NCBI GenBank assembly: GCA_019058295.1
Contig: JAHPZI010000023.1
Location: 12,766-76,765 of the forward strand
Source of the DNA: Promethearchaeota archaeon
GTDB taxonomy: Archaea; Asgardarchaeota; Lokiarchaeia; Sigyniarchaeales; SOKP01
Direction: 5' to 3'
Length of the DNA: 64,000 nt
This document shows, piece by piece, positions 3,383 through 26,194 of this stretch; position 1 is the stretch's first letter; every line of letters starts with the position of its first letter. The position numbers and the translations under genes were made by a program. The notes below the pieces were generated by a model that saw nothing but the letters and a program-made list of their open reading frames with translations, searched no databases and had not been told where the DNA came from.

Positions 3383-3913
3383 TCAGAATTTTTCGTAATG
3401 AACTATTTTTTCAAGGGGTTTCCGGGCTTCCACTTCACTTTTCTGCTTGACAGGAAACCCTAAGGGAGTTAATCCCATAACGTGATATTCTTCGGGAATC
3501 TCTAAAATTTTCTTTACTTTTTCTTCATTAAACCACCCTATCCAACACGTTGCTAAGCCCTCAGCTGTGGCTGCTAAAATTAAATGCTCAAAACAAATAC
3601 CAAAATCAACAGGGTAATATTTTTCGCCATTAGAATTTGTACCTGAACGTTTTTCAGGGATAATACCTACAATAAACATAGGAGCTTCGGCAAACTTCTT
3701 TCTCTGCCCTATTGCTCTCCATATCTCTTTCACTTTCTCTGAATCTTGAACAATTATATAATGAACTCCCTGCATATTTGCCCATGTGGGCGCAAGTCTT
3801 GCGGCTTCCAAGATTCTTTCTATTTTTTCCATTTCGGGCATTTCTGGCTTATATATTCGATAACTCCTTCTCTTTTTAACTACATCGTAAAAATCCATCT
3901 TAAATTGCCTCAT
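3383..3913 (-). CDS. Nitroreductase family protein
   Basis: RRSYR, AARLAPT..N.Q, LAATAEGLATCWIG and RKPL motifs; true start may be ATG at 3898. Confidence 0.9.
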   Translation of the reverse strand: MRQFKMDFYDVVKKRRSYRIYKPEMPEMEKIERILEAARLAPTWANMQGVHYIIVQDSEKVKEIWRAIGQRKKFAEAPMFIVGIIPEKRSGTNSNGEKYYPVDFGICFEHLILAATAEGLATCWIGWFNEEKVKKILEIPEEYHVMGLTPLGFPVKQKSEVEARKPLEKIVHYEKF

Positions 3914-4097
3914 AATTATTTTGATTCTATATATCTTTTAATTAACTTTTATTTATTATTTCTATTTATATTTCAAAAATTTTGAAAAACATCAAAAGAA
4001 TTAAGAAATTATATACTATTTTTACTACTTTTTCCTTATTATATTTATATATTAGATTTTTTATGTATTCTCATATTAAAACACGAAAGCGATAAAA

Positions 4098-4907
4098 ATG
4101 GCTAAAAAGAAAACTGGAAGATTTAAAAACATAACAATTGAAGAAAAAACAGCGTTAGAAGATATTGAAAAGTTAGTTGGAGAATCATTAAAAGAATATA
4201 AAGAATTTTTGGGAATCTATCCATGTGGATTCATAATTAAAGATGGGCATGTTACTAAATTAGGAATTGAATATAAGGGATTGCCAAAAGTTCCAAAGAC
4301 GCTAAAAGATTTAAAGTGGCTAAAAGAATTAGGTTTATCTTGGAATAAATTACCCTCTATCCCCGACATATTTAATAGTCTAATAAATCTCGAAAAAATT
4401 GATTTGGCATACAATAGATTGAAAACTCTCCCCGACTCATTTGGTAATCTCATCAATCTCAAGAGATTAAATTTAGCAGGTAATGACTTTAAAACACTCC
4501 CCAACTCATTTGGTAATCTTATCAATCTCAAGAGATTAGATTTGGCCCAGAATGGCTTGAAAGCACTTCCCGACTCATTTGGAAACCTAAGGATGCTTGA
4601 GGAATTGGACTTATGGGGCAATTGGTTGAAAACACTTCCGGAATCATTCGGAGATTTATCCAATCTCAAATCTTTGGAATTATGTTCAAATACTTCACCC
4701 AAGATTCCAAAATCGTTTGAAAATCTAACTAATCTTAAAAAATTATTATTGTCGGTTAAAGAAGTTGGGCTTTTTCCAAGGAAAATAGCTGAGCAACTTA
4801 AAAAACAGGGCTGTCAAGTTCATTATGAAGCACGTGAATGGATCGGTGATTGGGGGGGAGACTGGGAAACGGTAAAATACGATTATTTCAAAAAAAAGGA
4901 AATATAA
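4098..4907 (+). CDS. Leucine-rich repeat protein (23-aa repeats)
   Basis: About 6 repeats of LxxLxLxxNxLxxLPxSFGNLxx. Confidence 0.9.
   Translation: MAKKKTGRFKNITIEEKTALEDIEKLVGESLKEYKEFLGIYPCGFIIKDGHVTKLGIEYKGLPKVPKTLKDLKWLKELGLSWNKLPSIPDIFNSLINLEKIDLAYNRLKTLPDSFGNLINLKRLNLAGNDFKTLPNSFGNLINLKRLDLAQNGLKALPDSFGNLRMLEELDLWGNWLKTLPESFGDLSNLKSLELCSNTSPKIPKSFENLTNLKKLLLSVKEVGLFPRKIAEQLKKQGCQVHYEAREWIGDWGGDWETVKYDYFKKKEI
4423..4670 (+). repeat. 69-bp coding tandem repeat (LRR units)
   Basis: Near-identical units containing ACTCATTTGGTAATCT(C/T)ATCAATCTCAAGAGATTA; later units are more diverged. Confidence 0.8.
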
Positions 4908-5217: not shown

Positions 5218-6150
5218 ATGAATCAGCAACAGCGAGAATTTTTAAGATTTAATAGAAATGAAGAAAATTTAGATATACTAAAAACAAACGAATGCTGTGA
5301 AAAGCCGTTAATTCAAATTAGAGATGGAAACCGCTTATGTTTAAATTGTGGGATGATTTATCAAAAAGAATTTGTGGGAAATGAGAGACGGGCTTACACA
5401 GTGGAAGAAATCCAGAGTCGTAAACGAACAGAACCCCGCTGGCGTGATTTTGGACCTCGTACAATGCTCCCAAACACCAAAACTGATAGCAAGGGTAAAT
5501 CAATAGGTGCAAAAGAGCAAGCTCTTTTTTCACGTTTATCAAAAATTCAAAATTCATTAATATCAAGCATTGAAAGAAATTTTTGGGAAGCAAAACCAAA
5601 ATTAAAAATGTTATGTTCCAAATTAAATATCCCTGAATATATATCAGATAGTGCATGGAAGATTTATTCAATTGTGGCTAAAAAGAAGTTAACTATGGGG
5701 AGATCGATTAATGGATTCATCTCCGGTGCCTTATATGCGGCGATTCGAGTTCATGATTTCCCGCGTTTGCTCGACGAGGTTTGCGAAGCATCGTTAACAC
5801 CTAGAAGAACAGTTCACAGAAGTCTCGCTATGATTATTCGGGAGATATTACCGGAATTAAATTTAAAATACCAACCAATTACAGCTGAATGTTTGGTTTT
5901 TCGTTTTGGCAATGAATTAGAATTACCGATGCAAATTCAAAAATGCGCTATTAATATGTTAATACAAGCATCACAAAACGGTTTAAAGAGAACAGGAAAG
6001 GATCCGAAAGGTCTTGCAGCAGCATGTATTTATATTGCTGCTAAAGATGGGGCTATGCGTAAAACCCAATCACGAGTTGCGGAAATTGCAAAAATCACTG
6101 AAGTTACTCTTCGAAGTCGAGCTAAACAAATCAGAAATAAATTATATTAA
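5218..6150 (+). CDS. tfb: Transcription initiation factor IIB (TFB)
   Basis: Zn ribbon CC..CLNCG, E.RAYT B-reader-like segment, two cyclin repeats (GRS..., GKDPKGLAAACIYIA), C-terminal HTH TQ..VA.IA.ITEVTLR.R. Confidence 0.92.
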   Translation: MNQQQREFLRFNRNEENLDILKTNECCEKPLIQIRDGNRLCLNCGMIYQKEFVGNERRAYTVEEIQSRKRTEPRWRDFGPRTMLPNTKTDSKGKSIGAKEQALFSRLSKIQNSLISSIERNFWEAKPKLKMLCSKLNIPEYISDSAWKIYSIVAKKKLTMGRSINGFISGALYAAIRVHDFPRLLDEVCEASLTPRRTVHRSLAMIIREILPELNLKYQPITAECLVFRFGNELELPMQIQKCAINMLIQASQNGLKRTGKDPKGLAAACIYIAAKDGAMRKTQSRVAEIAKITEVTLRSRAKQIRNKLY

Positions 6151-6200
6151 AAAAATTTTATAAATTTTTAATTATCAAATAATTAGGGTTAAGGGTAGAT

Positions 6201-6764
6201 TTAATCTCCTTTTTCTTTTTTTTCAAGTTCTAAATTCCAATGTAGACCTAGAGCACCAAATACTAATCCAACCATTAAATAATAACAAACAACCCCCGTA
6301 AAAAATAGCCAAATAACTATGACATAAAAAGGAGCTAAATTTGCGCTAAAAATAATGTGTTGGAATGTTTTTAATCTCCCACCAATTGTAATTTCAGTTC
6401 TACCTAAAAACGTTATATATGCTAATTTAATGAAGGAAAAAATTAAAATTAACATACCAAACATAAGCATGCTTTTAGCTCTACTTTTATTATCAATTTT
6501 ACTTGAAGAAAGTTTTAGAAGAAGTAATCCAATTATAAAAAAGATACAAATTGAGCTAACTAGAAAGATAAATATTAAAGTAGCCGAGAGTGGAACGTAA
6601 GTTGAGTTAAATATAAATTCTTGAAAAAGCATTTTCTTGCCATATAAATTAATTTGTGTAGATAATAGTAGAAATATATTAAATAGCTCGATAGATGAGA
6701 GAACGATAAAAAGCAAGCCAAATACTATAAGAACTTTTTTGTAATGTTTTTCTTCATATACCAA
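6201..6764 (-). CDS. Hypothetical membrane protein (about 4 TM)
   Basis: 187-aa hydrophobic ORF, TTG start. Confidence 0.7.
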   Translation of the reverse strand: MVYEEKHYKKVLIVFGLLFIVLSSIELFNIFLLLSTQINLYGKKMLFQEFIFNSTYVPLSATLIFIFLVSSICIFFIIGLLLLKLSSSKIDNKSRAKSMLMFGMLILIFSFIKLAYITFLGRTEITIGGRLKTFQHIIFSANLAPFYVIVIWLFFTGVVCYYLMVGLVFGALGLHWNLELEKKEKGD

Positions 6765-6920
6765 TTGGGGCCACTATTTTTATTTTCTAAAATTAAAAAT
6801 ATAATTAATAATTATAATTTGATTGATTTCTTATAAAAATTCTTATACAACTTTTACTTCTAATGCATTTGAAATTAGAATAATTTATGATCAAAAAATT
6901 TTTATAAATGAGCTATTTCA

Positions 6921-18061: not shown

Positions 18062-19387
18062 ATGAGTAAATCAATAGTTTCTATTGGTAAGTATGAAAAA
18101 CCGTTTGAGTCTGTCAAGAAAGTTATTGAACTTGCGAACGGACTTGAAAATTTACCATCTAAAGCCAAAGTATTTATTAAACCTAATATCGTATATTGGA
18201 ACCGACATTGCACTATTCCAAAATGGGGTGTTCTGACAACTTCTCGAGTAATGGAAGATGTCGTAGCTTTGCTTAAAGAAAAAGGGATTGAGGACATAAT
18301 CATTGGCGAAGGGATTGTCAAAGAAGACCCGAAAGATAAAGAAACAGCCGCTGATGCTTGGGAAAAACTTGGATATAATAAACTTATTGATAAATATGGT
18401 GTTAAGGTATATGATTTATTTGAAAGACCTTATGAGAAGATTGATCTAAACACAGGATTTAAGACAAATTTTAGTTCTGATGCTCTTAATGCAGATTTTC
18501 TAATTGATATTCCTACTCTTAAGACGCATGCTCAAGCCATGGTTAGTTTGGGCCTCAAAAATTTGAAGGGTTTAATTAGTGTTGCATCTCGAAAGAAATT
18601 TCATAATGCTGACCCCGTAAAAAATCTTGATCATAATGTTGCTCAACTCGCAAATAAAATACCTCCTTCTTTAACAATTATAGATGGGATTTATACTCTT
18701 GAAAGAGGTCCCGCCATTGATGGAAAAAGTCATAGAAAAAATATTCTTGTTGCATCATCAGATATATTAAGTGCTGATATGGTTGGAGCAAAATTGTTAG
18801 GTGTCGACCCTTCAACCGTCCCATCTTTAATCCAAGCAGCAAAAGATCGAAATAGACCTACAGATTTATCCGATGTTGAAGTAGTTGGAGAAAAGATAGA
18901 AAATCTGGCGTCTCATCATGAGTGGGATTTTAAATATAATGAAGCAGATGATTTACCCCTTCCTTTCCAGAGAGCGGGTATAGAAGGTATAAAATATCAT
19001 AAATATGACTCAACCATGTGTACATACTGCAGTGGCATGAACGGACTGATTTTAATAGCTATTAAAATGGCTTATAGGAAGTCTAAACCTTTTGATAAAG
19101 TCGAAGTGTTATCTGGTAAAGTTATGACACCCACACCTGGAAATAATAAAACTATTCTATTTGGGCAATGTCAATATAATTTGAATAAAGATCATCCAGA
19201 GATTAAAGAACTGATTTCAATTCCAGGATGCCCCCCTTCAAGGGAGGCTATACAAGAGGCTCTTCAAAAAATTGGATTAAAAGTTCCTAAATCTTTTTGG
19301 GAGAATTTAGATAAAGCCCCAGGATGGTTAATGCAGAAATTTAAAGGGAAGCCAGAATTCGAGGAATCTTTTTTTCAAATTCAATAA
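18062..19387 (+). CDS. DUF362 domain protein with C-terminal Cys cluster
   Basis: IKPN, IGEG, LKTH, SLGLKNLKG, IDGI..E.GP; C-terminal CTYC, GQC, GCPP. Confidence 0.85.
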   Translation: MSKSIVSIGKYEKPFESVKKVIELANGLENLPSKAKVFIKPNIVYWNRHCTIPKWGVLTTSRVMEDVVALLKEKGIEDIIIGEGIVKEDPKDKETAADAWEKLGYNKLIDKYGVKVYDLFERPYEKIDLNTGFKTNFSSDALNADFLIDIPTLKTHAQAMVSLGLKNLKGLISVASRKKFHNADPVKNLDHNVAQLANKIPPSLTIIDGIYTLERGPAIDGKSHRKNILVASSDILSADMVGAKLLGVDPSTVPSLIQAAKDRNRPTDLSDVEVVGEKIENLASHHEWDFKYNEADDLPLPFQRAGIEGIKYHKYDSTMCTYCSGMNGLILIAIKMAYRKSKPFDKVEVLSGKVMTPTPGNNKTILFGQCQYNLNKDHPEIKELISIPGCPPSREAIQEALQKIGLKVPKSFWENLDKAPGWLMQKFKGKPEFEESFFQIQ

Positions 19388-19436: not shown

Positions 19437-20366
19437 TTAAATTTGCGATTTTTCGCTATCTTTCTTTAATATTAAAATTTCATTTAATCTGTCGGTATAA
19501 ATTTTAACTCCCTCGTTATCATTAATATCATAGCAAACGTCTATAATTCTAGAGTACTTATTTATTGCTTTTTGAAAATTCTTTTTATCAAGTTCTTCTT
19601 GAGCTTCCTTTAGCAAATCTTGTATTAATTTTTTTGATTTTTGAATATGATCAACGCTTTTCTTCTCAATTGTTTTTACATCTGCATGAAATATCTCTAT
19701 TAATATAGATTCTATCTCTATAATTAATTCATAAATTCTTTTAGGATTATTAGAATCCCAATTTGAATAGGTAATAGCTTTTTCCCAAAATTTATCTATA
19801 TCTCCATCAAATAATTTAATGATATCTAAAGGAATGTTTAATTTAGGTTTCTCAGGATAATCAGTAAAATCTAACCCTATAATAAAATGTTCATCCAAGG
19901 TAATAGATAAGTAAACTAAAGCATTAGTAATTGAATCTATAAATTCCGTTTGAAAATAATACATTAAATCCTTGGCTTCGCGAGCAATTAGAACTTCTTT
20001 ATCAATAAGTTGCACAGTTTCCTCCTTTACTTCAACTACCTCTTTCTCAACTGGAGGGGCTTCCTCAATGATTTCAATTTCAGGGGGTTCCTCTTTCTTA
20101 ATTGGAGGTGCTTCCTTAACTGGGGCTGGTTCTTTGACAACTCTTTCTCTCGGTTTTATTATAGTTTTTTCTTTAACTTCAGCTATTTGTTGCAATATCT
20201 CTCTTAATTCGTTTTCCAAGGTTAATTTATTAGATTTAAATTCATCAAGAGGTATCGCTCCTTGTTCCAATTGTTTTTTCAAATTTTGAATGGTGATGAC
20301 AATTTCTTTAACTCTTGATTTTAATTGTTGTATATTTTTTAATATTTCCTCTTCACTCAATCTCAC
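19437..20366 (-). CDS. Multidomain protein: helical hairpin, Pro/Glu-rich linker, UBC/UEV-like domain, MIT/TPR-like helices
   Basis: 309-aa ORF. Its GTG start overlaps the upstream gene's TGA (GTGA at 20366-20363). E2-fold hallmarks LIAREAKDL, DYPEKPKL and NWDSNNPKRIYELIIEI. Domain calls are inferred. Confidence 0.6.
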   Translation of the reverse strand: MRLSEEEILKNIQQLKSRVKEIVITIQNLKKQLEQGAIPLDEFKSNKLTLENELREILQQIAEVKEKTIIKPRERVVKEPAPVKEAPPIKKEEPPEIEIIEEAPPVEKEVVEVKEETVQLIDKEVLIAREAKDLMYYFQTEFIDSITNALVYLSITLDEHFIIGLDFTDYPEKPKLNIPLDIIKLFDGDIDKFWEKAITYSNWDSNNPKRIYELIIEIESILIEIFHADVKTIEKKSVDHIQKSKKLIQDLLKEAQEELDKKNFQKAINKYSRIIDVCYDINDNEGVKIYTDRLNEILILKKDSEKSQI

Positions 20367-21409
20367 TTTTCACCTGAATTAATTTTTTTTTTAACCATTT
20401 TTTCAAATCCTATTGCATTAGAAAAACTAGGATCTTCAACCTTAATAATTCTACTTAAATCTATATCACCAACTAAATTATTTTCTAATATTAAAATCTC
20501 AATTTCAGTCCAAAAAATATCCAAAGCTTCACCTGCTAAAATAAAATATTCGATTTCTGCATCTAATGGTAAATTTCTTATCAAATCAATTAAAATATTG
20601 ACAATTTCAGTTGAAATTTGACGGATATAATATTTTTTTATTTCACTAATATCGTATGATTTTCCAGAGATTTGAACTTGTTCTTTATTGTCCCTTATGC
20701 TCTGTAAGATTGAATGAGGATTAACAATGTATCCTGTTTGTTCCTCTAGGGCAAGAGAGATTTTATTAGATAAAACAAATAATGAAGCATTTGTTAAATT
20801 TCGGGAGGCATTTCGAATCAATTTTCCATCAAAGATAATTAAGATTTCTGTTAATAGATCTAAAGAAATTACCACAGCATCTAATGCGGTATCTAACTCA
20901 GCACTTGAAATCACGTCATAATAAGTACCATAAGATTCAGGCATAACTAAAACCTGCTTAATATTAATTTTTTTAGTTATTATGTCCTTTGTTGCTTCAT
21001 TTTTAATTTTAATCTCAAATTCGCCTTTTAGCTTAGCACTTAATTCCTTCATCTTTTCTATAGTTGTAGAAACTGGAACGCCTATTCCAAGAATAAATTC
21101 CTCCTCATCATTCTCGGAAATTAATGGCAAGACTGATTTAATCAACAAGAAAATTTCATCAGTCTTTTTAAGATGTGCTTGATCTAAGAGATAATGTTTA
21201 ATTTCGCTCTGAGTTCGCGCTAATTCACCTATATAATATTCCTTATCGGTTTCTATGAGAATAAGATTATTTTCCCAACTTTTATCTACCGTTAAATCTC
21301 CCCATCCTGTAGGATCACTAGAACCAATTACATTAGGAATCGATAATTTGATAGATTCGCTAGAGAATTTAATATTCCCTCCTATATCAATTCCTATACC
21401 TAAAATAAT
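20363..21409 (-). CDS. ParM/StbA-like actin-fold protein, degenerate (putative pseudo-ATPase); probable ATT start
   Basis: The frame stays open 87 codons upstream of the tracked start (21148), reading IILGIGIDIGGNIKF...GW....DKSWENNL...YYIGELARTQSE, collinear with the neighbouring actin. It is bounded by an in-frame TGA at 21412-21410, and the extension has no ATG/GTG/TTG. Confidence 0.85.
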   Translation of the reverse strand: MILGIGIDIGGNIKFSSESIKLSIPNVIGSSDPTGWGDLTVDKSWENNLILIETDKEYYIGELARTQSEIKHYLLDQAHLKKTDEIFLLIKSVLPLISENDEEEFILGIGVPVSTTIEKMKELSAKLKGEFEIKIKNEATKDIITKKINIKQVLVMPESYGTYYDVISSAELDTALDAVVISLDLLTEILIIFDGKLIRNASRNLTNASLFVLSNKISLALEEQTGYIVNPHSILQSIRDNKEQVQISGKSYDISEIKKYYIRQISTEIVNILIDLIRNLPLDAEIEYFILAGEALDIFWTEIEILILENNLVGDIDLSRIIKVEDPSFSNAIGFEKMVKKKINSGEK

Positions 21410-21601
21410 TCAAGCACCAATTTTTTACGATATTTCAAGCGAATATTCAATAATTATAAATAGTAATATTTGTATAAATAACAAATGTATGATAAAAATA
21501 AAAAATATAATATTAAAAGTAATTAATGTAATTATAAATATAAATTTGAAAAAAAATTCAAAAAAACTAACTATTATCTAAAATTTATAAGGTGAGAAAT
21601 A
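21410..21601. promoter_or_regulatory. Putative bidirectional promoter between the two actin genes
   Basis: Very AT-rich spacer. TAATTATAAATA occurs at 21451-21462 and 21529-21540 (TATA-like on both strands). AAGGTGAG precedes ATG 21602; GGTG precedes ATT 21409 on the minus strand. Confidence 0.5.
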
Positions 21602-22808: not shown

Positions 22809-24059
22809 GTGGGAGAAAAATCACCTCAAGATAATGTTAATAAGCTTGAAGACACCGTAAAAAAAGCATTGGATGGTTTTTCCGGAACAGACTCTGGGAC
22901 GGATACCGACCTTTCGAGTTTAGAAGGTGTAGTACAAAATGCATTAACTGAATTAACCGATTTAGAAAATAACTTATTAAATGTTATCTCCCCATCAGCA
23001 GGTAGTCAAGAAGACAAGGATAGCAATTACTTATTAGCAGTCAGACGATTACAAAACGCAATGAAAGTAGCGCTTTTAGATGGTGCGAGGAAAAAAGATT
23101 TAAAAACATTCGAAGAGGGTTTTAATTTCTATAATAATGCCCTTGAAATAATAACTGCTACAGGGATTCAATCTGAAATAGATCAAGTAATGAGTGAATT
23201 TGCCCAAACACTTATAAAGATAATAACCAAACCTGAAAATATTAAAAATCCTGAGTTTAAACCTTTTGCGTTTAAAGCTTGTAAAAATTTAGCGGAAATT
23301 TATGATTATTTTAAAAACTTTGAAATTAGTGGCAAATTTCATAATCGCGCCGGAGGTTTAATCTCTGATAATCCTCTCATCGCAGAATTAGAGTATTTTC
23401 AATCAGTTATTGACTATATTCTCCTGAACGATCTAAACAAAGCAAACGAACAGACTTCAAAGCTAAAATTTAAACATATTGTAATTTTCGCAAATGACCT
23501 AACAAACGCAATTAACGAATCTAAACCAGAACTTATTGAGCAAATTAAAACTAAAATCGAAGTCTTAGCAGCTCAAAAGGGATTTAAACCTAAAAATATT
23601 CTTTTTTTGCTAAATTTGATTAAAGATCGAATTAAAGATTCCAGCGGAAAAGTAACTGCGCAAACAATAAAAGCACCATCCGATGTTGTACCGTTATCTA
23701 AAGAAAAAATAGAAGCTATCAAAGATTCCTTGACACAAGGAATTCAATCACTTCAAGAAGCCTATCCTGAGCTCGAAAATCCAGCGGCTGCTCAGATTGA
23801 TACCAGTGAAATAATTTCTGAATTAAAAGAAGTTATCTCAACCGAAATTAGTAAAGAAGTAAAATCCCTTTCAAGCGACATCGTATCCAAAATCCTGAGC
23901 AATCTCCCCCGAGGTGGAATGGCATCTGGTCCCAGATATGCTGGAACTATTTCCGACGCAGATAGGCCTGATATTGAAATTGTTGAAGGTGGCCCAAGAG
24001 AAAAACCTCAAAGACCTAAGTTAGATGATATGCTAGATTCTGTAATCGTTAGCGAATAA
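22809..24059 (+). CDS. Hypothetical helical protein (alpha-SNAP/TPR-like core, disordered tail with terminal amphipathic motif)
   Basis: 416-aa ORF, GTG start; TPR-like helices in the centre; Gly/Pro-rich tail ending RPKLDDMLDSVIVSE. Confidence 0.65.
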   Translation: MGEKSPQDNVNKLEDTVKKALDGFSGTDSGTDTDLSSLEGVVQNALTELTDLENNLLNVISPSAGSQEDKDSNYLLAVRRLQNAMKVALLDGARKKDLKTFEEGFNFYNNALEIITATGIQSEIDQVMSEFAQTLIKIITKPENIKNPEFKPFAFKACKNLAEIYDYFKNFEISGKFHNRAGGLISDNPLIAELEYFQSVIDYILLNDLNKANEQTSKLKFKHIVIFANDLTNAINESKPELIEQIKTKIEVLAAQKGFKPKNILFLLNLIKDRIKDSSGKVTAQTIKAPSDVVPLSKEKIEAIKDSLTQGIQSLQEAYPELENPAAAQIDTSEIISELKEVISTEISKEVKSLSSDIVSKILSNLPRGGMASGPRYAGTISDADRPDIEIVEGGPREKPQRPKLDDMLDSVIVSE

Positions 24060-24088: not shown

Positions 24089-26194
24089 TTAACTCGTTTT
24101 GAAATGTTGTTGCGGTTGAAAGATAGATAAATTTAGATCTTCAAATCTATTAGAATCACAAATTTCAGTAAACCATGTATAATCAGTATTAGGTTTCATT
24201 TGGTTACGAGAATCATTTATCCACGCGGAATTCTTATTTAATCCATAACTAGGCATAAGAAACGATAGGAAAAACATATTGTCGTAGAAATATAGATTGT
24301 GAAAATCAGTGTAATTAGAATTTCCTTCAGAAACCCAATTTAAATAGTATCCGTTTGCATTAGAAAGCTTATCTAGCGTAGACCATTTGGTATAGAAGGG
24401 CTTTTTTATATCTTCTGCTACTTCTCCAGTAGGAAAATATGAGATTTTATCCTTGTTTGCTAAATAGGCATTTAAGAGGTTATTATGAGATTTAAGGATT
24501 CTCGACTTTGATCGCTTCTCTCCATTTCGATAATTTACTGTAATGTTATATTCTCCATCTTCTAAGAATCCATTTCTATCAAATCCGACATATCTAATTT
24601 GATCCATATTCAACCTATCAACAACATATCCATTTCCATTCTTAAAATCGAAAGGCTCATTAAAGACCTTAAATTCATAACTATTTGGTCCTTGGACGAT
24701 AATATTGTCAATAATATTTGTAAATTTTTCTCCAAATAAGCCACGAAACATTGCTTCAAATCTAGTTTGCTTTTTTGGCATATCGCTGCTATTTTCACCA
24801 TTATCAAAATATGTTTGGCTTACAATTATATTATCTAGTGTTGGTATTGTCTCAGTTTTAACATCTTCATTAAAAAATGACTCTTCAAATTCATTAAATC
24901 GGTGCCAATATCTCATTCCATGTAAAAGTGGAATTTTCTCAAGGTTAGCAAGATATTCAGGATTTACATTTATTCCAGCTTTATGAAGAGCTTTTGTTAT
25001 GTTTTCAAGTTTTGGAGGGCAGCCTTTTATAGCTATAAGTTCTTTAATGTCTGGATTATTTCTATGTTTATTAAACATACATTGACCTAACAAAATTGTC
25101 TTTTTTTTCCCCGTAGGATTCATTCTTTTTCCTGTAAGAACTTCTATATCATCCCAAGGGTTTCCAACCCATGCAAAATTAATTGCTTCGAGTACTCTGC
25201 TAGTAAGCATAGAGCAATATGTACATAAGGAATTATCATAATTCCAATAATATATCCCCTTTACTCCTCGGTGTTTAAAAACTCTTGGCATTGAACCATC
25301 TTCAGTATAGGGGAATTTATATTCATGAAAATCTTGAACTTTCTCAATTTTTCTCCCTATAATCTCAACATCAGAAAAATCTATCGGTCTATTATTGGAT
25401 TCCGCATAATATTTAAGGTATCTGACGTCTGAGGGATCATAACCAAGAATTTTTGCTCCTACCTTATCAGCTGAAAATATATCAGAAGAAGCTATAATGA
25501 GATCTTTTCTTCTCATTTTTCCATCATAATTAGGGCCTCTTTCATTGGTATAAATTCCATCTATTACTGCGGCACTAGGAGGAAGTTTATTAGAAAGATG
25601 GGAAATAAAAAATTCAAGATCTTTTTCTGTGTCTGCGGTATGGCATTTTTTTCTTGAATTCACATCGATTAATCCCTTTAAATTTTTTAGAGCCAAACTT
25701 ACTTTGGTTTGAGCATGGGTCTTAAGAACTGGTATACTAACGATAAAATCGCTATATAAGGCATCTGTATTAAAATTTAAATCAATCCCATCACCTAAAT
25801 CGACATTCTCAAAAGACCTCTCAAAAACGTTGATTACCCTTATGCCGTGCCTTCTTATAAATATATTATAACCCAAAGTTTCAAACGCATGACGAGGAGT
25901 TTCAAAGTCTTTAGGATTCATTACGATAATACCCTCACCAATCGTAATATCAGAAATTCCTCGTTCTTTTAACGCAATTATTGTATCCTCAACAACACGA
26001 GAAGTAGTCACTACACCATATTTTGGATAAAAAGGTTCACATGACCAATAAACAATATTAGGTTTTAAAAATACTTTCTCATTTCCAGATAAATTTTCAA
26101 ATGCATTTGAAAGGTTGATAGCTTTACCTACAGATTTAATTTTGTTTCTATAACGTACAATTGCAACACGATGCTTATCCATGGTAAACCACAC
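24089..26194 (-). CDS. DUF362 domain protein with Cys cluster and ~250-aa C-terminal extension
   Basis: LKPN, IGEG, LKTH, LKNLKG, CTYC, GQC, GCPP; paralog of 18062..19387. Start is likely ATG at 26182. Confidence 0.85.
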   Translation of the reverse strand: MWFTMDKHRVAIVRYRNKIKSVGKAINLSNAFENLSGNEKVFLKPNIVYWSCEPFYPKYGVVTTSRVVEDTIIALKERGISDITIGEGIIVMNPKDFETPRHAFETLGYNIFIRRHGIRVINVFERSFENVDLGDGIDLNFNTDALYSDFIVSIPVLKTHAQTKVSLALKNLKGLIDVNSRKKCHTADTEKDLEFFISHLSNKLPPSAAVIDGIYTNERGPNYDGKMRRKDLIIASSDIFSADKVGAKILGYDPSDVRYLKYYAESNNRPIDFSDVEIIGRKIEKVQDFHEYKFPYTEDGSMPRVFKHRGVKGIYYWNYDNSLCTYCSMLTSRVLEAINFAWVGNPWDDIEVLTGKRMNPTGKKKTILLGQCMFNKHRNNPDIKELIAIKGCPPKLENITKALHKAGINVNPEYLANLEKIPLLHGMRYWHRFNEFEESFFNEDVKTETIPTLDNIIVSQTYFDNGENSSDMPKKQTRFEAMFRGLFGEKFTNIIDNIIVQGPNSYEFKVFNEPFDFKNGNGYVVDRLNMDQIRYVGFDRNGFLEDGEYNITVNYRNGEKRSKSRILKSHNNLLNAYLANKDKISYFPTGEVAEDIKKPFYTKWSTLDKLSNANGYYLNWVSEGNSNYTDFHNLYFYDNMFFLSFLMPSYGLNKNSAWINDSRNQMKPNTDYTWFTEICDSNRFEDLNLSIFQPQQHFKTS

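Follow-up and report, generated by a model that had tools for sequence, protein, structure and literature searches.

The locus and its gene family

The window, the whole stretch of 64,000 nucleotides that was analysed, carries a degenerate ParM/Alp-type actin-like gene (P0001) at positions 20363-21409 of the minus strand, comprising 348 codons and a TGA stop at 20363-20365. As the earlier note had claimed, the frame is intact: positions 20366-21409 translate into 348 residues without a stop. Divergent to P0001, on the plus strand, lies an intact ParM/Alp-type paralog (P0002, 21602-22639) in which all five ATPase motifs are present, followed by p416 (22809-24059, plus strand), a gene whose place behind the intact ALP is conserved according to locus comparison. 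The partner gene directly 3' of P0001 is cc309 (P0076, 19437-20366, minus strand), found from the ORF list and by locus comparison. The GTG with which it starts overlaps the stop of P0001 (GTGA), and the sequence AGGTGA is located 3 nt upstream of this GTG.

This module of a head-to-head ALP pair, with p416 behind the intact copy and cc309 behind the degenerate copy, is conserved in Loki/Hel loci, and the head-to-head order persists between lineages whose dS is saturated. The cc309 gene follows the degenerate ALP directly in every locus with enough sequence, except in L011 and L049 where a longer cc309 paralog, sharing the hairpin part, replaces it. In one genome (G126) the two halves of the module are on separate contigs and each ALP still has its own partner. 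All 10 genomes with a degenerate-type match (at least 45% identity) also have an intact-type match, while the intact copy occurs without the degenerate copy in Heimdall-type genomes. Module matches were obtained in 5 of 134 genomes of the same family and in 2 of the 9 of the same genus. The module is absent from most of these genomes and is therefore an accessory rather than a core cytoskeletal element, which limits its importance.

In the 192-bp intergenic region a putative TATA-like element, rich in AT, precedes the proposed P0001 start by about 42 nt (21451-21462, minus strand), and a mirrored one is placed for the divergent intact gene (21529-21540); both are proposed from palindromic sequence elements (TAATTATAA/TTATAAATA). 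No parC-like or iteron-like repeats are present in this region, only one 11-nt direct repeat in two copies and AT-rich palindromes. Scans for sigma-70 promoters and terminators gave results at the level of shuffled sequence, with models that are not applicable to archaea. The locus is chromosomal and surrounded by housekeeping-type genes.

The family assignment of P0001 is given by both profile and structure comparisons. Residues 6-161 match Pfam ALP_N (PF17989) with 52.5 bits against a cut-off of 26.3. The match to PF21522 (MreB-like_C / Alp7A_like_C) is 17.5 bits, below the cut-off of 27.8, compared with 44.7 bits for P0002. There is no match to Pfam Actin (PF00022) in P0001, and P0002 reaches 21.7 bits, under the cut-off of 27. 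A match to PHROG 691, annotated as partition protein, was obtained as well. AlphaFold2 gave a two-domain model of P0001 (pLDDT 90.3, pTM 0.89) that in Foldseek aligns over about 350-380 columns with ParMs and Ta0583. The closest PDB structures are Dh-cParM1, pCBH ParM, Ta0583 and CorM, with E of about 1e-20 to 1e-18 and TM 0.70-0.81; the reference structures of the ParM/Alp group are the chromosomal Dh-cParM1 (8x1i), pCBH ParM (6ixw/6izr), pSK41 ParM (3js6), Alp7A (5ec0), CorM (9rmi) and the archaeal Ta0583 (2fsj). E values against ParM-type structures are about 2e-20 to 1e-17 with TM 0.68-0.81, and the best 12 Foldseek matches are all ParM, Ta0583, CorM or Alp7A, whereas actin and Arp structures appear from rank 29 on (TM 0.55-0.67). 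The overall fold is thus nearer to ParM and Ta0583 than to actin, MreB or Hsp70. P0001 and P0002 belong to the ParM/Alp branch, outside the actin/Arp family. The description of P0001 as Arp-like in the earlier note consequently holds as an analogy but not as membership, given PF17989, TM 0.70-0.81 with ParM and Ta0583, the lack of a Pfam Actin match and the lower TM with actin and Arps.

Three other origins or functions were considered for the locus and rejected. It is not a ParMRC partition cassette, since the downstream gene is no small ParR and there is no repeated parC beside P0001. A mobile-element origin is disfavoured by the closest phage proteins being 25-27% identical, by flanks that vary between loci and by the lack of an integrase in these flanks. 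A defence system is disfavoured as well; PADLOC gave no match for P0001 or cc309, and its matches for the remaining two genes were marginal (E about 1e-3).

Rebuilt nucleotide motifs in a maintained paralog

P0001 and P0002 (21602-22636, plus strand) are 41% identical over 336 columns (BLASTP, E 3e-82). The alignment, together with a comparison of the clades, shows that three nucleotide motifs of P0001 are rebuilt. The phosphate-1 loop (residues D8-K14, 21368-21388, minus strand) reads DIGG-NIK where P0002 has DLGTSTIK, and is one residue shorter. The phosphate-2 loop (residues 181-188, 20846-20869, minus strand) reads ISLDL-LTE against VDIGHGSTD, is likewise one residue shorter and lacks the Asp and both Gly of DIGHGSTD. 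Gly, Ser, Thr and Asp residues of the intact motifs are thereby lost from the two phosphate loops. In the adenosine motif (residues 292-296, 20522-20536, minus strand) CGGGA is replaced by AGEAL, so that GGG has become GEA with a Glu inside the former glycine run. None of the patterns DxGxxxxK (phosphate-1), DxGxGxxD (phosphate-2) and GGG (adenosine) is intact in P0001, and the altered form is conserved throughout the clade. The connecting motifs are kept: connect-1 (P157-E158-S159, 20933-20941, minus strand) retains its Glu in PESYG, compared with PEPYG in P0002, and connect-2 is SNAIGFE compared with SNARGFE. The same motif changes, and the retention of both connect motifs, had been read from the sequence in the earlier note; the alignment and the recurrence in orthologs agree with that reading.

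Because three nucleotide-contacting motifs are rebuilt, P0001 most likely lacks ATP hydrolysis and normal ATP binding, as judged from its sequence. Residues D8, G10, G11, K14 and the connect-1 Glu are kept, and given these P0001 may still bind a nucleotide or a metal to some extent.

In Loki/Hel-type Asgard archaea about 60 orthologs were found, and they share the rebuilt motifs. The degenerate motifs are present in every ortholog examined, which together with the ALP_N score rules out chance. A search of the orthologs for intact motifs or frequent frameshifts found neither, and at least 13 orthologs contain no stops or frameshifts at all. Columns that are conserved in both clades but with different residues concentrate in the nucleotide motifs, including phosphate-2. 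Many surface segments are identical in both clades, for example YIGELAR.QSE.K, and mean column conservation in the degenerate clade is the same as in the intact clade.

The degenerate copies form one monophyletic clade (SH-aLRT 100), which is nested within the intact Asgard ALPs when bacterial outgroups are added. Rooting with these outgroups gave no firm order of the degenerate, half-degenerate, Loki/Hel-intact and Heimdall-intact clades. The dN/dS ratio of the degenerate copy is 0.10-0.16, and that of the intact copy 0.08-0.13. The first 87 codons of the degenerate copy, which are absent from the gene calls, have a ratio of 0.08-0.09 and differ from the nearest relative by 9 synonymous and 3 non-synonymous changes. 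These ratios show that P0001 is not a decaying pseudogene. It is an old paralog, preserved by selection, of a chromosomal Asgard ATPase of the ParM/Alp type, and the earlier suggestion of a maintained rather than decaying gene was correct. The combination of lost motifs, purifying selection, conserved orthologs and the presence of an active-type paralog would be that of a pseudoenzyme.

Start codon and partner protein

No ATG, GTG or TTG is available to begin the full P0001 frame, the first in-frame one being codon 88. The mechanical ORF list accordingly contains only 20363-21148, a product of 261 amino acids from a TTG, and the public gene call for the sequence (P0007) is also 261 amino acids long, so automated annotation does show a fragment, as had been predicted. 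Judged by the AlphaFold2 model, such a product would be missing three strands at the beginning of subdomain IA as well as the entire subdomain IB. The frame is closed by an in-frame TGA (21412-21410) immediately 5' of an ATT (21409-21407; ATC in related strains), and this ATT or the invariant ATT at 21406-21404 is the probable non-canonical start (21404-21409, minus strand). A Shine-Dalgarno-like GGTG (21418-21415), followed by CT and the TGA (together 21410-21418, minus strand), is situated 5 nt before the ATT, a spacing equal to that in the P. abyssi aEF1A start region (PMC6237735).

The layout without a canonical start is found in L001, L008, L012, L049, L050 and L051, and in five ortholog lineages (L001, L008, L049, L050 and L051) GGTG, GGAG, GGTGAT or AGGAG precedes the ATT/ATC by 3-8 nt. 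Three other metagenome populations have ATC at 21407 with the upstream TGA kept. The intact copy has an ATG start in 14 of 14 loci, in contrast to the weak ATT/ATC or Shine-Dalgarno-embedded GTG of the degenerate copies, although some degenerate orthologs have ATG (L002, L010 and L011). P0001 thus probably starts at a weak ATT/ATC codon behind a Shine-Dalgarno-like site, and its expression is presumably low. Among the public sequencing runs, none listed as carrying the gene is an RNA run. Initiation that seems to be at ATT/ATC is also the reason why standard gene callers truncate or mis-start this type of gene, which is a practical warning for annotation.

Other explanations of the start region were rejected. 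A programmed frameshift from a TTG/GTG in the +1 frame (21420-21415) is ruled out by L008, which has CTGGAG and no such start. Read-through of the upstream TGA is ruled out by the presence of only four codons, none of them a start, between this TGA and a TAA. An assembly error is ruled out since the TGA is kept, with no indel, in two independent MAGs and in contigs from three other studies.

The partner protein cc309 has 309 amino acids, arranged as a hairpin, a linker, an alpha/beta domain and a helical domain, and has no Pfam match. Of its 30 invariant columns, 13 fall within the N-terminal hairpin. Prediction of the P0001-cc309 complex gave a score of 0.65 (runs 0.65, 0.69 and 0.62) with a best control of 0.00; the score is a model confidence obtained with self-built alignments, and 58 of 80 solved complexes attain this mark, as do 2 of 110 mismatched pairs. 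The runs share at least 45% of contacts, with a partner pLDDT of at least 69. The predicted interface comprises P0001 residues 170 and 300-323 and cc309 residues 16-27, 51-62 and 69-70. P0001 residues 300-323 (20441-20512, minus strand) consist of W300, the helix FW.EIE.L.LE and the following loop, a surface that is conserved in the degenerate clade only. Binding of P0001 to the N-terminal hairpin of cc309 is thus supported by a model only.

Foldseek found no PDB match for cc309 at E of 0.001 or below. The best matches are E2/UBC domains (E 0.06-0.5, about 120 residues). VIA-align listed the hairpins of CdvA and ESCRT-I Vps23, the UEV-like domain of VPS37A, FANCL and the MIT domains of NRBF2, katanin and calpain-7, all at Z 9-10, which is within the stated background for helical models and makes these matches a lead only.

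Proposed role and alternatives

P0001 probably belongs, as a subunit without enzymatic activity, to a hitherto undescribed filament module of four genes. The preferred reading, given a probability of about 60%, is that it is a maintained, non-ATPase adaptor or regulator that is made from the 348-codon frame, holds cc309 and is coupled to the filament system of P0002 and p416. Translation from the weak ATT/ATC would keep it scarce in comparison with the intact copy, which starts at ATG. The helix that follows the adenosine motif and is specific to the degenerate clade (residues about 300-323) would hold the N-terminal helical hairpin of the co-transcribed cc309, and P0001 would in this way couple cc309 to the filament system of the intact paralog and p416, presumably by touching the intact paralog's filament.

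A stoichiometric co-polymer, in which P0001 and P0002 form an obligate polymerising heterodimer with one hydrolysing subunit, like alpha/beta-tubulin or BtubA/B, would fit the strict co-occurrence with the intact copy, the divergent shared promoter region and the surface segments common to both clades. It is nevertheless unlikely. The systematic contrast in start codons disfavours equal dosage, the two genes are on separate contigs in G126, and the intact copy of Heimdall-type genomes, which occurs alone, has no need of a dead partner. That P0001 instead still forms filaments in a nucleotide-dependent way despite its unusual pocket, running its own system independently of P0002 with cc309 as a ParR-like adaptor, is a more doubtful proposition. 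The retained D8, K14, connect-1 Glu and connect-2, the dedicated partner gene with its predicted complex and the separable operon halves agree with it, but each phosphate loop is shortened, Ser, Leu and Asp stand in place of the phosphate-2 Asp and all loop glycines, a Glu sits in the adenosine motif, and the gene was never found without the intact paralog in the 10 genomes.

The predicted binding is to cc309 only, and cc309 has a weak structural likeness to non-cytoskeletal domains; P0001 could from this be a scaffold for cc309 in a non-filament process, its linkage to P0002 a mere consequence of duplication history. The head-to-head order kept despite saturated dS and the intact copy accompanying every degenerate one make this improbable. 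Least credible of all is a recent pseudogene, or a truncated 261-amino-acid product from the TTG at 21148. The missing canonical start and the gene calls point that way, but the low dN/dS and few non-synonymous changes in the N-terminal 87 codons, the uninterrupted frames of the orthologs, the strands that a truncated product would miss and the loss of the +1 frameshift start in L008 already contradict it.

The adaptor reading can be compared with known systems. P0001 shares the fold, the domain order and the ALP_N match of ParM/Alp proteins, and cc309 follows it as ParR follows ParM. The known ParM/Alp proteins listed above have the phosphate-1, phosphate-2 and adenosine motifs intact, hydrolyse nucleotide and form polymers (PMC12270681). 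P0001 differs by having all three motifs rebuilt and by always accompanying an intact paralog; cc309 is no small ribbon-helix-helix ParR, and the intergenic region has no iteron-like repeats. In crenactin with arcadin-2 and in ParM with the C-terminal peptide of ParR (cited in PMC9834061; PDB 4a62), a helical element of an operon-encoded partner binds the actin-like protein, and the partner peptide occupies the hydrophobic groove of the active, polymerising subunit. The predicted contact differs from these in that a two-helix hairpin of cc309 would sit on a dead subunit, at the helix that follows its adenosine motif.

Among eukaryotic actin-related proteins, Arp7 and Arp9 of SWI/SNF-type remodellers and the Arp subunits of Arp2/3 have a degenerate nucleotide site. 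Such paralogs with the actin fold act beside a conventional actin system as structural subunits that do not polymerise or do not hydrolyse, and are a functional analogy to P0001. They belong to another branch of the superfamily: P0001 has no Pfam Actin match and superposes less well on actin and Arp structures than on ParM and Ta0583. TsaB (YeaZ), which has the ASKHA fold but is inactive, forms a pair with its active paralog TsaD. It shows that a catalytically dead duplicate of this superfold can be retained as the obligate partner of an active enzyme; TsaB/TsaD is, however, a tRNA-modification complex without a filament, and TsaB has no sequence kinship with P0001 beyond the superfold.

A more specific version is tentative and distinctly unlikely to hold in full: an Asgard-specific heteromeric machine in which a scarce, dead ParM-type subunit, binding the end or side of the ATP-driven filament of the intact paralog, tethers to it an ESCRT-I/Vps37-like cc309. 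The helical hairpin, the E2/UEV-like alpha/beta domain and the MIT-like three-helix end of cc309 might, at a similarly speculative level, echo ESCRT-I/Vps37-type parts. If this version is true, archaea independently reached the eukaryotic Arp logic of actin, inactive actin-related subunit and adaptor, with a possible tie to ESCRT-type membrane work.

No description of ParM-like proteins in Asgard archaea was found in the full-text literature with the terms ParM, ParM-like, Ta0583 and pseudo-ATPase. Surveys of Asgard actins would miss the ALP family because they began from BLAST searches with Lokiactin. The weak start of one paralog and the ATG of the other would, if the proposal is true, be a simple and testable dosage mechanism. 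The known prokaryotic actin-like filament systems consist of one ATPase and an adaptor, and the combination of an active and a dead actin in a heteromeric design has so far been tied to eukaryotic Arp-containing complexes. If the proposed role is correct, such a heteromeric design would exist in the archaeal group closest to eukaryotes, in the form of a conserved second subunit that is under selection, catalytically dismantled and equipped with a partner of its own.

The degenerate paralog and its family

With high confidence, P0001 (20363-21409, -) is a full-length ParM-type paralog that is under selection and has a dismantled nucleotide site. Translation of 20366-21409 (-) gives 348 residues and zero stops, as expected from the intact 348-codon frame described in the earlier note. 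That note also predicted a fragment in automated annotation, and this is what is found: mechanical ORF calling covers 20363-21148 only (261 aa from TTG), and the public gene call of the identical sequence, P0007, is a 261-aa fragment too. The intact paralog P0002 (21602-22636, +, 345 aa) is 41% identical to P0001 over 336 columns (E 3e-82). Re-alignment reproduced the earlier motif comparison exactly. Phosphate-1 is DLGTSTIK in P0002 and DIGG-NIK in P0001, phosphate-2 is VDIGHGSTD and ISLDL-LTE, and the adenosine motif is CGGGA and AGEAL, respectively; connect-1 (PEPYG and PESYG) and connect-2 (SNARGFE and SNAIGFE) are retained.

P0001 is a ParM/Alp-type actin-like protein (ALP) because of its profile and fold matches. 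The Pfam family ALP_N (cut-off 26.3) is matched with 52.5 bits by P0001 and 64.1 bits by P0002, and PHROG 691 'partition protein' is matched by both (E 2.8e-26 and 2.7e-43). For PF21522 MreB-like_C (cut-off 27.8), P0002 scores above the cut-off (44.7 bits) and P0001 below it (17.5 bits). A sequence search of solved structures with P0002 had Dh-cParM1 and pCBH ParM among its matches. The AlphaFold2 model of P0001, from an alignment of 54 sequences (pLDDT 90.3, pTM 0.89), gave Dh-cParM1 (8x1i), pCBH ParM, Ta0583, CorM, pSK41 ParM and Alp7A as best Foldseek matches (E 2e-20 to 1e-16, TM 0.68-0.81). The label 'Arp-like' can be no more than an analogy, since neither paralog reaches the cut-off of the Pfam Actin family and actin and Arp2/3 chains rank below the ParM/Ta0583-type structures.

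Selection, phylogeny and distribution

The window (GC about 31%) and its relatives are assigned by source names to Promethearchaeota/Lokiarchaeia, with further relatives in Helarchaeota. About 60 orthologs of P0001 were found (44-97% identity), all with GIDIGG.IK. At every locus read, all three motifs are rebuilt in the degenerate copy and canonical in the intact copy; intact motifs in orthologs, which the earlier note gave as a refuting condition, were not seen at these loci.

The degenerate proteins form one clade in the maximum-likelihood tree (SH-aLRT 100), on a stem branch about 0.5 changes per site long. With bacterial outgroups this clade is nested within the radiation of the intact Asgard ALPs, and the rebuilt motifs are therefore derived; that tree does not settle the order in which the main clades branch. 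Pairwise dN/dS (Nei-Gojobori) against the related loci L008, L002 and L003 was 0.146, 0.162 and 0.098 for P0001 and 0.078, 0.134 and 0.128 for the intact copy. Mean column conservation within the degenerate clade is 0.66-0.70, equal to the intact clade. Columns in which each clade conserves a residue of its own are concentrated in the nucleotide motifs, and conservation of FW.EIE.L.LE (P0001 residues 299-309) is confined to the degenerate clade. The purifying dN/dS and the equal conservation bear out the view that the gene is maintained and not decaying. Decay to a pseudogene, or a truncated product, is contradicted by the same conservation and by dN/dS, including that of the N-terminal codons.

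Among 1.84 billion cluster representatives only 7 matched at E <= 1e-30, the next tier being bacterial ParM-like proteins of about 24% identity; the whole Asgard ALP family is therefore small and distinct. Literature searches found no description of a ParM-like family in Asgard archaea. The source genome has exactly two ALP copies, P0001 and P0002. Of 400 genomes scanned in the phylum, 68 gave a match, and all 10 genomes with a degenerate-type match also had an intact-type match. The four-gene module is accessory in Lokiarchaeia, being found in only 5 of 134 same-family and 2 of 9 same-genus genomes of the scan, several of them at least 90% complete. The intact gene is found in 29/31 and 12/12 genomes of two Heimdall-type families.

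Other ALP types were also seen. A third type, from a sister family within the same order (L037:3703-4926, L038:3980-5125; P0074, P0108), retains the phosphate loops (GIDFGSSLIK, TDIGFGSAE), has lost the connect-1 Glu (VVYGPYG) and has GDG/GEA as adenosine motif; this type may mark a second path to degeneration. Genome G281 has this type plus an intact copy. The Heimdall-type family f18, including G082 (L033, L034, L035), has three ALP copies per genome; the L035 ALP has a divergent phosphate-2 (DIGAGATN), and a pattern search found no recognisable phosphate-1 or connect-1 in it.

The translation start of P0001

The P0001 frame opens immediately after an in-frame TGA (21412-21410), and neither ATG nor GTG nor TTG occurs in it ahead of codon 88. 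For the 87 codons that gene callers miss, dN/dS is 0.076 (L008), 0.088 (L002) and 0.090 (L003), and this stretch is therefore translated. In the window, L001 and L008 the upstream TGA closes the frame, which begins ATT/ATC ATT with GGTG (GGAG in L008) 5 nt before it. Contigs of three other studies bridge the start, with the TGA kept, no indel and ATC for ATT at 21407. L012, L049, L050 and L051 are without a canonical start before the first beta-strand and have GGTGAT, GGTGTT or AGGAGAT, then ATT. The annotated TTG/GTG of L003 and L013-L016 falls within this Shine-Dalgarno-like motif. An ATG start of the degenerate copy is found only in L002, L010 and L011; for the intact paralog, an ATG lies 2-10 codons ahead of G.DLGT in 14/14 loci. 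We infer from the sequence that initiation of P0001 occurs at either of two codons, the ATT/ATC (21409) or the invariant ATT (21406). In its spacing the region is similar to the strong archaeal start region GGAGGUGAU-UUAA-AUG, and non-canonical start codons are reported as discriminated against by archaeal aIF1 (PMC6237735). The yield of P0001 would be low.

A second ATT start in the window is likely in an MDR-type dehydrogenase. Its frame (-) begins ATT (41218-41216) AAG GCA GCT ATT TTT, that is IKAAIF exactly where the family has MKAAIF; a TAA precedes it by two codons and GATGAT by 6 nt.

Gene neighbourhood, cc309 and the predicted complex

The Loki/Hel loci have the order p416 <- intact ALP, then degenerate ALP -> cc309. 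The GTG start of cc309 (P0076, 19437-20366) overlaps the P0001 stop (GTGA), with AGGTGA 3 nt upstream. In G126 the halves of the module are on different contigs, each ALP with its own partner beside it. Heimdall-type loci have intact-type ALPs only, and cc309 and p416 are absent there even by profile search.

Further features of the neighbourhood were observed. Two DUF362 paralogs (18062-19387, +, and 24089-26194, -; 52% identity over 440 aa) flank the module, facing inward, and a DUF362 gene lies within a few kb of it in L003, L011, L049 and L050 too; with only about 10 DUF362 genes in the 3.2 Mb source genome, the association looks non-random. In a marine-sediment Loki contig (L051:764-2731) three genes, one HEPN-like, lie between the two ALP genes, and the head-to-head promoter region can therefore be dispensed with. 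Two separate ORFs (215 and 191 aa) make up the p416 homolog in L002:3333-4628. In the window, p416 (22809-24059, +) ends in a Gly/Pro-rich stretch and a short amphipathic segment, KLDDMLDSVIV, which might serve the intact ALP as a ParR- or arcadin-like tail. In the Heimdall-type L018, L020, L026 and L032 (~3700-4710, 6100-6850) p416 and cc309 are replaced by a conserved divergent neighbour of the intact ALP (323-325 aa) and, downstream of it, a membrane protein of about 230-240 aa.

cc309 matches no Pfam family, and 30 homologs of it are detectable. Its model (pLDDT 78) begins with a hairpin of two helices (5-62), followed by a disordered Pro/Glu linker (68-114), an alpha/beta domain (~109-225) and, at the end, three helices (230-307). 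Foldseek matches were weak (E2/UBC domains at E 0.06-0.5). VIA-align gave Vps23/CdvA hairpins, the VPS37A UEV-like domain, FANCL and MIT domains at Z 9-10, within the stated background for helical models; an ESCRT-like flavour would be a lead only. A longer protein of 413-427 aa, sharing only the N-terminal hairpin, directly follows the degenerate ALP instead of cc309 in L011:6039-7298 and L049:3970-5244, and follows cc309 in L003:7899-9140 and L050:4732-6024.

P0001 is predicted to bind cc309. The complex scored 0.65 (runs 0.65, 0.69, 0.62) against 0.00 for the best control; this mark is attained by 58/80 solved complexes and 2/110 mismatched pairs, counts that are only rough here because each chain was given a custom alignment. 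At least 45% of contacts agree between runs, with partner pLDDT at least 69. The confident contacts join P0001 170 and 300-323 with cc309 16-27, 51-62 and 69-70. The interface is in keeping with two independent observations, the clade-specific conserved helix of P0001 and the cc309 hairpin, which holds 13 of the 30 invariant columns and is the part shared with the longer paralog. No comparable solved complex is known to us, and recall of a known structure is therefore an unlikely source of the score.

Three rival readings are weighed: that P0001 and P0002 form a stoichiometric co-polymer, that P0001 builds an independent nucleotide-dependent filament, or that it is an unrelated scaffold. We prefer, with moderate confidence, the reading that P0001 would be a non-enzymatic subunit, present in small amounts, which holds cc309 and acts together with the filament of the intact paralog.
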